NCBI RefSeq assembly: GCF_963921235.1
Contig: NC_086097.1
Location: 51,648,001 to 51,712,000 of the forward strand
Direction of reading: 5' to 3'
Length of the DNA: 64,000 bases
From: Mobula hypostoma
Lineage: Eukaryota
Shown here: piece by piece, positions 1,264 through 62,933 of the stretch
Layout: the number at the start of each line of letters is the position of its first letter
How positions within the stretch are numbered: the stretch's first letter is position 1
The notes under the pieces: model-generated
Told to the model about the DNA's origin: nothing
The model's database searches: none
The model's input: the letters and a program-made list of their open reading frames with translations, nothing else
Made by a program: the position numbers and the translations under genes

Positions 1264-1491
1264 TGAAGCTCCTTCCATAACTCCAAAAGACTGAGGTTAG
1301 GTAAAATACTGAAAGGGTTTTATTCGCTGTACAATACGACCTCCATGGTGAGTGTCTGCCCCCGGACAGAGGGGGAGGGGCAAGGCGAAACACCTTTATA
1401 CAGGAATCTGTGGGAGGAGCCACAGGGACAGTCAGCAGAGGGGCGTGTCCAGACAGTTAACCCAGTTACAACATATATATGGTTTACCACA
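1264..1491 (-). repeat. 3' LTR of Gypsy element 1
   Basis: Minus strand reads TGTGGTAAACC...AGCTTCA; direct repeat of 5551-5777. Confidence 0.97.
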
Positions 1492-1509
1492 TTCACCCCT
1501 CCTTTTTTT
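1492..1509 (-). promoter_or_regulatory. Polypurine tract of Gypsy element 1
   Basis: AAAAAAAGGAGGGGTGAA immediately upstream of the 3' LTR on the minus strand. Confidence 0.9.
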
Positions 1510-1560
1510 AAAAAGAGTCCCGCGGGGTGAAGTGACTGACAATATTTAAAACAAGTATAT

Positions 1561-4281
1561 TTACAGGTCAAGTCTATCGGGCGGTCGAGTCCGTCGCTGT
1601 GATCTACGTAGCACCGGCGGTGATTGCATCAGCGACGGCGGTTGTGCTGGCTCCGGCCTGACTTGAGGTGCCAGCACATTAGGAGTTGGTAATCCCTCGT
1701 GCGTGTGTGTCGCGCCCGGTATGGGAGTGTCGTGTGGTATCTGTGTGGGGCTTGGAGTGCGCGGTGTCTCGTGGGTATATATATCGGTGGTTACGGGGTC
1801 AATAGTCACCACGGAGTGTTCAGGGTAGGGTCTCGGTGCTCCTGCGGGCGCCAGGTCGCGGATGGAGACTGTGTCCTCCCGCCCATCAGGTAAAACCACA
1901 TAGGCATACTGAGGGTTCGCATGAAGTAAATGAACCCTCTTGACCATCGGGGAGTATTTATTGCTCCTCGCATGCTTCCAGAGCAGCACTGTCCCTGGGG
2001 TCATCAGCCAAGTTGGTAGGGTCGTCCCTGTGGTCGACTTTCTGGGAAATGAAAAGAGCTGCTCATGAGGGGTGGCATTGGTGGACGTACATAACAGGGA
2101 GCGGATGGAGTGGAGTGCCTCGGGAAGGACCTCCTGCCAGCGGGAGACCGGCAGCCCCTTTGACCTGAGGGCTAAGAGTGTGGCTTTCCACACCGTGCCA
2201 TTCTCATTCACCACCTGTCCATTCCCCCGGGGATTATAGCTCGTGGTCTTACTCGTTGCAATTCCCCTAGCCAGTAGGTATTGGCGCAGCTCGTCACTCA
2301 TAAACGAGGACCCTCTGTCACTGTGGATATAGCATTGGTATCCGAACAGAGTGAAAAGCTTGTGCAGGGCTTTTATAACTGACGTAGTAGTGGTGTCGGG
2401 GCAGGGGATGGCGAAGGGGAACCGCGAGTACTCGTCGATAACGTTAAGAAAGTACACATTGCGGTCGGTGGAGGGAAGGGGGCCCTTAAAGTCAACACTC
2501 AGTCGCTCAAAGGGGCGGGTGGCCTTGATGAGTGGTGCCTTTTCGGGTCAGTAGAAGTGCGGTTTGCACTCTGCGCAGACTTGGCAGTCCCTGGTCATCA
2601 TCCTGATCTCCTCAAGGGAGTAAGGCAGGTTCCGGGCTTTCACGAAGTGGAAAAGCTGGGTGACCCCCGGGTGGCAAAGATCTACAGGTAGGGCGTATAG
2701 CCGGTCGATCTGTGCGCTGGCGCACATTCCCCAGGATAGGGCATCAGAGGGCTCGTTGAGCTTTCCAGGCCTGTACATGATGTCATAGTTGTAGGTGGAG
2801 AGTTCGATTCTCCACCTCAGAATTTTATCATTTTTGATTTTGCTCCGCTGCTGATTATTAAACATGAATGTGACTGAGCGCTAGTCAGTTAGCAGGGTGA
2901 ACCTTTTGCCGGCGAGATAGTGCCTCCAGTGCCTAATAGCTTCCACTATGGCCTGGGCCTCTTTCTCCATTGCGGAGTGCCGAATTTCAGGGCCTTGAAG
3001 GGTACGGGAGAAGAACGACACTGGTCTTCCCGCCTGGTTGAGGGTAGCAGCCAGCGCAAAGTCGGAGGCGTCACTCTCCACTTGGAAGGGAATGGACTCA
3101 TCCACCGCATGCATTGCTGCTTTGGCAATGTCCCCTTTTATGCGGCTGAAGGTCGCGCGGGCCTTGGCTGAGAGGGGGAATGTGGTGGACTTGACCAGGG
3201 GGCGGGCCTTGTCTGCGTAGTTAGAGACCCATTGAGCGTAATATGAAAAGAAGCCCATTCACCTTTTGAGGGCTCTGTGAGTGTTGGGAAGAGGGAGTTC
3301 CAACAGGGGGTGCATACGGTCAGGGTCAGGGCCAATGACTCCATTCTCCGCGACACACCCAAGGATAGCAAGTCGGGTGGTCCCGAATACACACTTGTCC
3401 TTGTTATAGGTGAGATTGAAAGCTTTGGCCACTTGGAGAAATTTTTGGAGGTTGTTGTCATGATCCTGCCGGTCGTGACCACAGATGGTGATGTTATCCA
3501 GATATGGGAACGAGGCCTTCGGTTGGCACTGGTCCACCATCCGGTCCATCGCCCTCTGGAAGACAGATACACCATTCGTGACACCGAAGGGGATGCGCAG
3601 GAAGTGATAAAGCCTGCTGTCCGCCTCGAAGGCGGTGTAAGGGTGGTCCTCCTGGCGGATGGGGAGCTGAAGGTAAGCGGATTTTAGGTCTATGGTCAAG
3701 TACACCTTGTACTGTGCTATCTGATTGACCATATCTGCGATGCCGGGTAGAGGGTATGCATCGAGCTGCGTGAACCTATTGATGGTCTGGCTATAGTCCA
3801 CGACCATCCTATTCTTCTCCCCGTTCCGAACAACCACCTGCGCCCTCCAAGGACTTGTGCTTGCCTCAATGACCCCTTCCCTGAGCAGCCGCTGCACCTC
3901 CAACTTAATGAAAGCTCTGTCCCCCGCGCTGTACCTCCTGCTTTTAGTTGTCACAGGTTTATAGTCGGGGGTCAGGTTGGCGAACAGCGGTGGGGGAGGG
4001 ATCCTGAGGGTGGAGAGGCCGCGAGTGGCGTCGGTAGTGCGGTAGTTGGCATGATGTTGGGTGGGATGTGCGGGTCGGTGTGTTTGGGTGGTCAGTAGTG
4101 GGGTATGTGACGTATTCCTACAAAACTGGGGATTTATGACAGTAATTGGTGGGAGGGGCCCATCATTCTCCATTGTCACACTTTTCAGGTGGCTCTGGAA
4201 GTCAAGCCCCAATAGCACAGGGGCACACAGTTGAGGCATGACCAGTAATGTAAAGTCTCGATATTCTGTGCCCTGCACCAC
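1561..4281 (-). pseudogene. pol: Gypsy pol (RT, RNase H, integrase) in one frame with premature stops
   Basis: RT motifs IDLKSAY, PFGVTNG, YLDN; RNase H ESDASDFALAA and EKEAQAI; integrase HPG/CQVCAEC, IDEYSRFP, HSDRG, NGQV; in-frame stops near 3259, 2881 and 2548. Confidence 0.95.
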
Positions 4282-4640
4282 TAGTGTCGCTACAAAACGC
4301 CCCCCCAGATGTCTGTTGTATGCGACCCGGAAGCCATGGTGACCTCTGACTTACTGGCCGTATCATGAGTCTGCAATGCTGCACCGTGTCGGGGTGGATA
4401 AAACTCTCTGTGCTGCCTGCATCAAACAGGCAGCTTGTCCTGCGCCCCTCCACCAGGATGTCCATCATTGACCTTGCGAGCTGGTGGGGAGTGCTTTGGT
4501 TGAGGGTCATGGAGGCCAGGGTTGAGTCACTGTCTTGGTCCGGCGCGGTGGGGTGCCCCGTGAGAACTCGTTGGTCGTAGGCGGTGGGAGGTGGCCCGAC
4601 CAAGATGGCCGCGCCCATGTCTCGCACGTGGTGGCGGCGT
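4282..4640 (-). pseudogene. Aspartic protease region of Gypsy element 1 (frameshifted)
   Basis: CLFDAGSTESFI active-site-like motif in ORF 4202..4867. Confidence 0.85.
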
Positions 4641-5525
4641 GCAGGGAAGATGGCGGCCCCATGTCTTGCACGTGGTGGCGGCCTGCAGGCAAGATGGCGA
4701 CCCCCATTTTTGGCACACGGCGCTGCTCGATCCTGCTCGCGGTTTGGACTTACAGACCTTCGCGAAGTGGCCCTTCTTTCCACAGCTGGAGCAGGTAGCT
4801 TCTCGGGCTGGGCAGCGTTTCCGGGGATGTTTCTCCAGTCCGCAGAAGTAGCACTTCGCGGACTCATGACTGGCGGCAGCCGAGGTCGATTCGCCGGCGG
4901 GTTGTGGAGACTTACAACTGGCGGCAGCCGAGGTCGATTTGCAGATGGGTTGCGGGGTCTGCGGCGCCCACGAGGCCATCGGGGGATCGTGTGCCTGGAC
5001 AGCCTCAGAGTTTTGCAGAGCGGCCTCCAGCGTGTCGGCCAGCTCGATCGCTGAACTTAAGGTAAGATCGGCTTTTTTCAACAGCCGCTGGCGCACATAC
5101 ACTGACCTGATCCCGGTGACGAAGGCGTCTCTCACTAGGAGCTCCGCATGCTGCGCCGCAGTCAGCTCCTGGCAATTGCAGGCTCGCACGAGCGTCCGTA
5201 GGGCCTGGATGAACTCAGCACTTGATTCCCCGGGCCGTTGTTGCCATGTCACTAAGCGGTGCCGAGCATAGACGCTATTTATTGGCCGCAGGTATTGTCC
5301 TTTGAGGGCGCTTATCGCGCCATCGTAGCTCGGCTGGTCTCTGATCAGCAAATAGACCCGTGGACTGACCCTGGAGAGCTGAACTCTGCGCTTCACTACG
5401 GGGTCGGTCACTTTAATCTCCTCTAGGTACGCTTCGAAGCGGGCCAGCCAGAGTTCAAAAACATTTCCAGCTTCAGGTGTTTGCGGATTGAAGTCTAATT
5501 TGTCAGGTCTCAGGGCATGTTCCAT
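4641..5525 (-). pseudogene. gag: Gypsy Gag with two zinc knuckles
   Basis: ORF 4527..5525 starts 25 nt after the 5' LTR and contains CYFCGLEKHPRKRC and CSSCGKKGHFAKVC. Confidence 0.92.
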
Positions 5526-5550
5526 GCTTTAAAATGTACAGCGATTAAAT

Positions 5551-5777
5551 TGAAGCTCCTTCAATAACTCCAAAAGACTGAGGTTAGGTAAAATACTGAA
5601 AGGGTTTTATTCGCTGTACAATACGACCTCCATGGTGAGTGTCTGTCCCCAGACTGAGGGGAAGGGGCAAGGCGAAACGCCTTTATACAGGAACTGTGGG
5701 AGGGGCCACAGAGGCAGTCAGCAGAGGGGCGCGTCCAGACAGTTAACCCCATGACAACATATATATGGTTTACCACA
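5551..5777 (-). repeat. 5' LTR of Gypsy element 1, with TATA (5687-5682), Inr-like TCAGT (about 5655) and AATAAA (5611-5606)
   Basis: Direct repeat of 1264-1491; motifs read directly on the minus strand. Confidence 0.95.
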
Positions 5778-6094
5778 CACATGGCAAGGACAACCAGACA
5801 TCCCACCTCTCCCGGAAGTTGTGGGAGTCTCCCGCATATCGATAGTGGCTCCCTGATGCCTGGAAATTATGTACAATATCCCGGAAATAGATTTTTTTGA
5901 GAGGGAGAGGGAAAGGGAGAGCGAGCATCCTGATTAGTCTCTCTTCATGCTAAGAGTGGTTCCCAACCACCAGGCCGCGAGGAAACAATATGATTTGGCG
6001 ATATGAAACAATATGAGTCAGCTGCACCTTTCCTCATTCCCTGTCACAGACTGTTGAAGTTTAACACATGCGAGGTCATCAGTGACCCAAGACG

Positions 6095-6466
6095 TGCAAA
6101 GGAAAGGGTCCGTGACCCATTTGTGAATGTCCCCGGTGAATCATCCATGTCAGCGTGGGAAAAAGATCAACTCCTCGAGCTTGCAAGTGACGGTGGGCTG
6201 AAAAGTATGTTTGACATAACATCTCTGCCGGCACTCTGGATCAAAGTCAAGGCTGAATATCCTGAGATAGCCACGAAAGCACTGAAAACGTTGCTTCCAT
6301 TTCCAACATCATATCTCTGCGAAGCGGAGTTTTCTGCAATGAATGCAACCAAAACTAAATTGCGGAATAGACTGGACATAAGGAACCCCCTTCGAGTATC
6401 GCGGTCTCCCATCACCCCTCGATAGGATTGTGTTGTTGCAGGAAACAAGCCCAGGGCTCCCACTGA
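6095..6466 (+). pseudogene. hAT transposase C-terminal dimerisation-domain fragment (Charlie/Buster type)
   Basis: EYPEIATKALKTLLPFPTSYLCEAEFSAM...KTKLRNRLD. Confidence 0.9.
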
Positions 6467-6592: not shown

Positions 6593-6899
6593 CAGTGGTC
6601 CCCACCCCTCTGGGCCGCGAAGAATATAGCAGTGGCCGGAATGCACCCAGCACATCTTTAAGAAAAAAGCCAAAATAAACAAGCTAATTAATTAGGTGCT
6701 GCCCGGCACATAAATGTCGGCCCAGATCAGAGGCGATTGCCGAAAGCGTTGTCTCTGATCCGGGCCGACATTTACGTGCTGAGCGGCACCTAATCAATTA
6801 GCTTGTTTATTTCGGCTTTTTTCTTAAAGATGTGCTGGGTGCATTCGGGCTACCGCTGTACCGCTGCATTCTTCGCGGCTTGGAGGTTTAGGACCACTG
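6593..6899. mobile_element. Palindromic hAT MITE (307 bp)
   Basis: Ends CAGTGGTCC...GGACCACTG; almost the whole element is one inverted repeat; 8-bp TSD TTATAATT/TTACAATT. Confidence 0.92.
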
Positions 6900-62702: not shown

Positions 62703-62933
62703 TGAAGCACCTTCAATTATTCCAAAAGACTGAAGTAGGGTAAATACTGAAAGGTTTTTATTCGCGGTAAAATATGACTTCCTGCATGCTGCGTGTCTGC
62801 CCCTGGACTAAGGGGGAAGAGCAGGGCGAAATCACCTTTATTCAGGGGTCTGCGGGAGGAGCCACAGGGGCAGTCAGCAGAGGGGCGTGTCCAGACAGTT
62901 AACCCAGTTACAACATATATATGGTTTACCACA
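62703..62933 (-). mobile_element. Solo LTR related to Gypsy element 1 (diverged subfamily)
   Basis: TG...CA; U3 end nearly identical to about 1410-1491, R-U5 diverged; flanks GATCC/GATAA are only a partial TSD. Confidence 0.92.

Follow-up and report, generated by a model that had tools for sequence, protein, structure and literature searches.

[quoted passage not shown] Self-priming of some kind is highly probable for this family, and we favour, as its likely form, a Tf1-like mode with an internal primer of about 50 nt, released from the 5' end of the element's own RNA, in a family that stands outside the Tf1/sushi group. What is new is thus likely to be a longer variant of Tf1-type self-priming, in a non-chromovirus animal Gypsy family. 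The sequence-level basis consists of the lack of a site for a tRNA 3' end, self-complementarity, covariation, a fixed geometry and integrated by-products.

Among animal Gypsy elements, the literature that we found describes self-priming only for Tf1/sushi chromoviruses. A second widespread lineage independent of tRNA would escape silencing by tRNA fragments at the PBS, and would be missed, or marked as incomplete, by LTR finders that seek a tRNA site. It also bears on the question of whether hairpin priming is ancestral or has been repeatedly re-invented.

Structure of the element

The window (the whole stretch of 64,000 nt that was analysed) carries on its minus strand a decayed copy, 4514 nt (~4.5 kb) in length, of a Ty3/Gypsy LTR retrotransposon (Table 1). 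TG...CA LTRs, a target duplication, a polypurine tract and the order gag, then PR-RT-RNase H-IN, are all present and support this assignment, and the best PDB match of the element's protein is Ty3 Gag-Pol/RT. The two LTRs are ~94% alike (13 mismatches and 1 gap over 228 alignment columns), and the flanks ATGTG and ACGTG form a 5-bp target duplication with one change. The RT active-site motif of this copy reads YLDN. The closest named homologs come from rays, and the host genome that was searched comprises 3.48 Gb; protein searches of this genome for divergent families recovered only the same family and its subfamilies, and no relative was found in the viral contigs searched.

Table 1. Features of the element copy, with positions in the window
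Feature	Position	Strand	Basis and remarks
5' LTR	5551..5777	-	227 nt, TG...CA; alignment to 3' LTR; same ends in 30 best family copies
3' LTR	1264..1491	-	228 nt; free copy of partner and poly(A) hexamer
TATA-like box TATAAA	5682..5687	-	sequence; AATAAA at same place in subfamilies B/C/D; putative function
Initiator-like TCAGTC	5651..5657	-	predicted +1 at 5655 (5654 possible); predicted 5' end of RNA and primer; 32 nt after TATA; three by-product tails end at 5654-5656 (L364, L396, L381)
Unpaired 5' part of predicted primer	5621..5654	-	predicted; 11/15 short tails end within 5656-5623
Partner segment ending AATAAAA	5605..5622	-	predicted paired 3' end of primer; overlaps poly(A) hexamer; pairing and covariation
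Predicted cut site, A-run/[GA]CC border	5604..5605	-	window copy reads CCC; RCC directly after partner in 20/24 families; junction clusters at 5611-5599
U5 stem beginning at predicted cut	5558..5604	-	GCCTT...AAGGT in most copies of subfamily; RCCN...NGGY across families
Alternative terminal hairpin TGAAG-nnn-CTTCA	5551..5563	-	TGATG/CATCA in subfamily B
PBS complementary to own LTR	5533..5549	-	1 nt beyond LTR end
gag	4527..5525	-	two CCHC knuckles; frame broken downstream; homologs found; no Pfam match
pol (protease region, RT, RNase H, integrase)	1561..4526	-	RVT_1, RT_RNaseH, RT_RNaseH_2, rve; broken by frameshifts and in-frame stops
Polypurine tract	1492..1510	-	sequence

Two further fragments of the U3 part of the same LTR lie in the window, at 741-855 and 62816-62930. 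The 5' LTR adjoins a frame (5994-6425) that we take to resemble the C-terminal dimerisation region of hAT-type transposases, and the flank of this frame (to ~6900) contains an inverted-repeat stretch near 6700-6810. Dispersed repeats whose ends are LINE-like or SINE-like (families D1-D20) are numerous in the window between 8000 and 60000.

A primer-binding site complementary to the LTR

The 25 nt between the LTR and the gag ATG at 5525 contain, directly after the terminal CTTCA of the 5' LTR, the sequence ATTTAATCGCTGTACATTTTAAAGC. There is no TGG in it, which bears out the view of the preliminary description that the element has no TGG-initiated tRNA PBS. We reproduced the pairing reported there, in which 15 of 17 positions of 5549-5533 match LTR positions 5622-5606 around a perfect core of 10 bp. 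The energy of this duplex, -17.9 kcal/mol, was equalled by only 2 of 2000 dinucleotide-shuffled LTRs (mean -9.3, sd 1.7), and the core pairs have a probability of ~1.0 in all 33 choices of start and end that were folded. Taken as a whole, the 133-nt leader exceeds its shuffles in stability to a moderate degree only (z -1.86; 11/200 as stable), so the signal resides in the local helix and not in global folding. The self-complementarity of the PBS to the element's own LTR is confirmed as a real feature, beyond chance.

When the PBS was compared with 13 distinct host tRNAs, which represent 4 isotypes only, the best match was 7-8 nt, and a search of Rfam with positions 5400-5900 gave no match. The TATA-like box at 5687 and the initiator-like motif near 5655 named in the preliminary description are present, with the A at 5655 lying 32 nt downstream of TATAAA; the partner segment starts 66 nt after TATAAA and 34 nt after the initiator.

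Covariation within the ray family

In the typical copy (among the 30 best DNA matches and the gag-based matches) the LTR end is followed by one A and then by a perfect 16-nt complement of the LTR segment ending AATAAAA. The window copy is slightly decayed: most family copies, which form a perfect helix of 15-16 bp, add one T and lack the mismatch, giving a perfect helix of 16 bp (equivalent to 5620-5605) that starts 1 nt past the CA of the LTR. We aligned 148 junctions, a set that is not random, being partly picked by DNA similarity or by a PBS-containing pattern, and scored 141 of them, the other 7 being dropped for missing anchors. At least 13 of the first 15 PBS positions are paired in 135 of the 141 copies. 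The preliminary description had considered that other full-length copies might carry a normal TGG site; TGG occurs at this place in 0/141.

Both sides of the helix change together in subfamilies B, C and D, and distant families covary too, which answers in the affirmative the question of covariation raised in the same description. Helix pair 8 is G-C in 78 copies and T-A in 33, pair 9 is C-G in 109 and T-A in 7, and pair 11 is A-T in 97 and T-A in 39; these counts represent few events inherited by many copies. Some copies combine the partner of one subfamily with the PBS of another. The spacing between TATA and initiator is canonical and is retained in all ray subfamilies. The change of the terminal hairpin from TGAAG/CTTCA to TGATG/CATCA in subfamily B is also compensatory, and the inner U5 helix is weaker there (L122-L150), which suggests, as far as sequence can tell, that U5 may adopt two alternative folds. 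Linkage mapping of the strand-transfer point gave no resolution, because linkage is tight among the markers in U3, R, U5 and gag (r2 reaching 0.93 for U3 versus U5; 148 copies).

The same geometry in distant families

Relatives of the gag N-terminus number 2905 at the 50% cluster level, and those that are named come from sharks, rays, corals, an anemone, a sea cucumber, nematodes and arthropods. We also scanned metagenome contigs and obtained 80 loci, among which 51 gag starts with upstream DNA represent 28 families. In several coral families the LTRs are near-identical. A perfect inverted repeat of 11-19 bp is present in 43 of these 51 junctions and in 24 of the 28 families (the best member of each being counted), while only 2 of 462 cross-family pairings, used as a chance control, reach 11 bp. 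The letters of the helix vary freely between families and its geometry is fixed. As the preliminary description had noted in the window copy, the PBS has the position of a primer site at the LTR end: it begins 1 nt beyond CA in most copies of the ray family and in 21 of the 24 distant families with a helix, the LTR end being verified against a 3' LTR for ~10 distant-family loci. The trinucleotide RCC directly follows the partner in 20/24 families, and no TGG occurs in the LTR/gag junctions that were inspected.

A second short stem in U5, formed by RCC and NGGY, accompanies the primer helix: its summed score over 28 rows (25 families and 3 ray subfamilies) is 280 against a null of 194 +/- 11 (maximum 234 in 500), with the peak at offset 0, although it is weak in ray subfamilies B and C and in L251. 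It constitutes an auxiliary duplex beside the primer helix, as in the self-primed class, which does not imply a resemblance to the three-duplex pretzel. A TATA-like box at a fixed distance is not conserved among the distant families, and for this reason the primer length of 50 nt is backed only for the ray family.

The partner ends in AATAAA or ATTAAA in 15 of the 24 families, and in the remaining 9 it lacks a poly(A) hexamer. For example, the partner of L247 ends GAAGA, and L204, L206 and L215 have a separate hexamer in an unpaired loop. These observations bear on the possibility that the helix serves only to mask the 5' poly(A) signal, as the polyA hairpin of HIV-1 does, with a tRNA fragment or another host RNA acting as the primer. 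The overlap with the hexamer in 15/24 families and the restriction of our tRNA comparison to 4 isotypes would allow for such a role, but pairing is retained where the hexamer is missing, the start at CA+1 is fixed, and in every family the letters of the PBS follow the element's own LTR. Moreover, the best tRNA match covers 7-8 nt (4 isotypes), Rfam gave no match, and the tails described below copy LTR and not tRNA. This explanation is largely refuted already by the covariation, and we regard it as highly improbable. Since 9 of the 24 families pair without a hexamer, the invariant is priming and not masking; of the masking proposed in the preliminary description, the overlap with the hexamer stands in 15/24 families, and the role can be secondary at most.

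A candidate 3' splice acceptor upstream of the partner found no support, its mean pyrimidine score being 7.75 compared with 7.54 in shuffles (20 families). Some of the contigs carry rearranged or nested elements. At L213:4094-4456 a Gypsy-like element, whose primer site has a normal TGG, is host to an inserted self-pairing element of the L207 family; in L229 (gag at 2337) an 18-nt stretch of U3 is repeated directly after the PBS; and in L244 (gag at 262) the LTR end and PBS are duplicated around a short inverted-repeat insert.

Proposed mechanism of priming

In the mechanism that we favour for the ray family, transcription would begin at the initiator near 5655. The segment from +35 to +50, which ends in the A-run, is predicted to pair in the folded RNA with the PBS 1 nt past the LTR end, as it does at the level of sequence, and a short RCC/GGY stem is predicted directly 3' of the paired segment. 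Cleavage by RNase H reportedly frees the self-primer of Tf1, which is said to be 11 nt long. By analogy, the RNA of the ray element would be cut between the A-run and RCC (5605/5604), probably by the element's own RNase H, and the capped fragment of ~50 nt left behind would prime minus-strand DNA with its 3'-OH.

The resulting strong-stop DNA would comprise only U5 back to the cut (~55 nt), and would be transferred on a short R overlap of 15-25 nt, which in the 3' R reaches from the cut to the poly(A) site. Judging from the by-products, the primer may often be kept, and plus-strand synthesis would then copy up to 50 nt of it. The tail produced in this way might be integrated unchanged or switch to an internal site. 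It might also land on R and continue through U3, and palindromic and inverted copies would be the outcome. In families whose partner contains the hexamer, the helix would have the added advantage of hiding the 5' poly(A) signal.

Integrated by-products

If the element primes with its own RNA, and this primer reaches further 5' than the paired part, plus-strand synthesis can copy past the PBS, and we therefore sought such a junction genome-wide. Positions in the element are given here as e = 5778 - window position, so that the LTR spans e1-e227, the predicted initiator A is e123, the last A of the partner e173 and the next base e174. Run-on junctions, which continue past the PBS into an antisense copy of the own LTR, were found 54 times (33 exact), against 0 for a reversed-pattern control and 723 normal junctions at the same stringency; palindromic and inverted copies make up ~7% of junctions. 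The matching pattern for subfamilies B/C/D gave 39 more run-on matches, and a looser pattern 3 more loci. From the resulting census of 96 loci we kept 88, in which the LTR end measures 20 nt or more and the run-on 18 nt or more, and dropped 8.

Among the 33 run-on copies of subfamily A with both ends, the target duplication is exact in 21, differs at one position in 3 and is missing in 4; the other 5 run into the polypurine tract. The direct repeats at the att ends indicate that run-on copies are products of integrase, not rearrangements of integrated DNA. Most (73/88) run to the left end of the LTR or beyond. At least nine (L368, L376, L377, L386, L387, L402, L413, L449, L465) remain antisense beyond U3 and enter the polypurine tract and the internal region; two of these reach the PBS and one spans the whole element. 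Palindromic LTR derivatives of ~405 nt with 5-bp target duplications of their own are a recurrent repeat type (L363-L416, L437-L478), which annotation tools might mistake for MITEs; they can be solo derivatives of longer antisense copies or direct fold-backs.

The remaining 15 of the 88 copies have short tails, which end at e19, 113, 119, 119, 122, 124, 124, 139, 141, 145, 146, 146, 146, 153 and 155 (three endpoints were corrected by eye from the sequence, and two of the 15 are internal deletions or insertions). Eleven lie in the pre-specified interval e122-155 (5656-5623), with P 8e-5 under a uniform model, and none of the 15 ends in e20-e112 (5758-5666). Only three end within 1 nt of 5655 (5654-5656), two of them with 8-10 nt of microhomology, and three others end 4-10 nt upstream of the initiator; the short tails could thus reflect early fall-off instead of the end of the template. 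L364 consists of an LTR, a 50-nt tail, a jump to the protease region and a 3' LTR, within a 5-bp duplication of GATGA, and L443 is built in the same way with a tail of 39 nt. Tails are also carried by three solo LTRs (L396, L439 and L455), which are flanked by repeats of their left target sequence. A search for LTRs cut short at the initiator gave only 2 matches genome-wide, one of them already known.

Of 13 aberrant LTR boundaries on the other strand, 7 fall at e167-179 (5611-5599; P 8e-6). Another 10 copies, which represent three or more subfamilies, have an antisense U5 that ends at e170-174 (5608-5604) and folds back to e199; 6 of the 10 have an exact duplication in a scripted comparison. 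Both sets fit a minus-strand strong-stop DNA that ends at the predicted cut, and a double template switch of the plus strand gives the same structure. A genome-wide pattern test for an excess of junctions at the predicted cut showed none, with 5 matches compared with 4 at a control site; L417, a match in this test, was rejected because it is an insertion that arose later and affects the 5' LTR alone.

A DNA fold-back, or a primer from the 3' R, would explain the 73 long run-ons equally well. In the latter case, the 3' end of the genomic RNA would be cut after the A-run of the 3' R and would pair with the PBS of the same or a co-packaged RNA, the primer being the whole RNA. The long run-ons, and among them those that continue through U3 into the internal region, two of which reach the PBS, are as expected, but a 50-nt primer copy that lands on the 3' R yields the same long products. 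Furthermore, the 5' copy of the partner lies 55 nt from the PBS and folds with a probability of ~1, and priming from the 3' R would not lead one to expect tails ending close to the initiator, or minus-strand ends at 5611-5599. We therefore regard it as unlikely.

According to another explanation, a short capped R RNA, polyadenylated in the 5' LTR or in solo LTRs, acts as primer in trans once host 3' exonucleases have trimmed it to the duplex, and the template is not cut by RNase H. Such an RNA would provide the same 50-nt primer and the same tail ends, and the AATAAA or ATTAAA at the end of the partner in 15/24 families agrees with it. We nevertheless find it very unlikely, as 9/24 families have no hexamer there, and both the minus-strand ends at the 3' edge of the partner and the conserved stem that starts at this point would be unexplained.

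Comparison with sushi-like elements of the same genome

Chromoviruses of the same genome (L351-L360, L487-L506), found with PF16297 and presumably sushi-like, a label given on RT motifs, were used as a control, an imperfect one that differs in helix length, age and heterogeneity. They share the self-complementary PBS (10-11 bp, 0-1 nt past the LTR end), but their RT is 28-31% identical to that of the ray family. Their partner, 240-430 nt from the LTR end, begins 31 nt after a TATA-like box (CATAAAA), compared with 66 nt in the ray family; a distance of 31 nt is as expected if the primer is the RNA 5' end. The run-on pattern adapted to these elements gave no exact match and 0 anchored run-ons against 404 normal junctions. 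Its 72 matches with mismatches differ in the LTR-end anchor, and the 20 that were inspected are plain antisense LTRs; if all 72 are of this kind, the contrast with the ray family has a Fisher P of 1e-10.

The control helps in judging whether the ray element could use the plain Tf1 mode, with an RNA that starts at or next to the partner, a primer of 16-17 nt, an unused TATA box and initiator, and run-ons that are all fold-backs of plus-strand DNA. The two arms of a run-on copy are closer to each other than to arms of other copies (median distance 0.058 vs 0.113), and private 11-mers are shared in 13/46, as fold-back predicts; the TATA distance is not fixed in distant families; and metagenome contigs L263 and L230 start at distances of 0 and 2 nt from the partner's 5' end, a weak hint in the same direction. 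Against this, fold-back does not explain why tails are confined to 5665-5623 and why the next 90 nt of U3 contain no tail end; no run-ons were seen in sushi-like elements, whose geometry is that of Tf1; and the canonical TATA-to-initiator spacing is kept in all ray subfamilies. The plain mode thus appears quite unlikely. For the longer, internal primer, tails that stop between partner and initiator, together with the sushi contrast, lend indirect support to the placement of the partner in the preliminary description, at about +34 to +50 of a predicted transcript and not at the RNA 5' end.

Relationship to known self-priming elements

Beyond this family, the by-products offer a general route to primer length and RNA start from genome sequence alone, and the geometry of the helix provides a sharp test of the cutting of an RNA duplex in mid-leader by RNase H (or another nuclease). 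Only tentatively, and with somewhat less than even confidence, do we extend the interpretation to a large Gypsy clade outside the chromoviruses that is spread across animals (corals, anemones, echinoderms, nematodes, arthropods, sharks and rays). This clade would have evolved self-priming independently, with a capped internal primer of ~50 nt whose cut falls at a conserved RCC stem, immediately after the element's own poly(A) hexamer, and the genome would contain dozens of integrated intermediates that map both primer ends.

The place of this clade among Gypsy elements was approached from the RT. In a tree with a midpoint root, one Mag-like row and no named references, a clade of 38 rows stands apart from 5 sushi-like rows (100/100). 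The Mag-like protein, P0023, which we take to be such from its gag, has an RT 29% identical and falls outside the clade. Mag and Cigr-1 are a possible home, being alike in short LTRs, 5-bp duplications and compact size; Mag elements have two CCHC knuckles, and Cigr-1 is said to resemble the ray element in element and ORF size. Mosquito Mag elements use tRNA-Ser/Leu/Arg (PMC3286476). Motif searches in the accessible parts of paper supplements (including PMC2836005, PMC6238403 and PMC8556966) found nothing by which to name the clade.

At the RT active site, Y[LIVM]DN replaces YxDD in 27 of the 38 clade rows (DD in 10, unreadable in 1), intact relatives included; in the window the motif lies at 3496-3507. 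In Ty1 the change to DN reportedly blocks transposition, and given this a naturally DN clade is odd.

We found no account of this clade as self-primed in the literature, our search extending to sources other than subscription journals, Repbase Reports and GyDB. Entries in Repbase reportedly mention self-priming Gypsy families in animals, which lowers our estimate of novelty. Self-priming has also been predicted, from complementarity between PBS and LTR, in the plant Tcn1 (Gypsy) and TAR/Houba/Osr-1 (Copia) lineages, so that this mode arose more than once (PMC6317226); the lineages and hosts concerned are others than those of the ray element.

The closest parallel is the Tf1 group. Self-priming is established for Tf1 and is ascribed to Tf1/sushi chromoviruses, in which the RNA 5' end serves as the primer and three duplexes form (bioRxiv 10.1101/2022.12.06.519325, PMC4600332, PMC5006619). 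Tf1 and Tf2 (Schizosaccharomyces pombe), Tj1, Tosmo1-3 and Tcry1 likewise have a PBS complementary to their own 5' LTR RNA and extra duplexes beside the central one (bioRxiv 10.1101/2022.12.06.519325, PMC4600332, PMC11042837). About half of Tf1 cDNAs retain a single-stranded copy of the self-primer (PMC11042837), which is the counterpart of the tails in the ray family.

In the Tf1 group the self-primer is the RNA 5' end, whereas in the ray element a paired segment of 11-19 nt, usually ending in the poly(A) hexamer, is predicted to lie ~34 nt inside the RNA. Unlike the Tf1 group, the ray element has two CCHC knuckles, an RT in a separate clade and no chromodomain: only rve was detected in the 328-aa integrase frame, and no chromodomain among the Pfam domains listed for 120 relatives. 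The element probably works like Tf1, but is one that stands outside the Tf1/sushi group.
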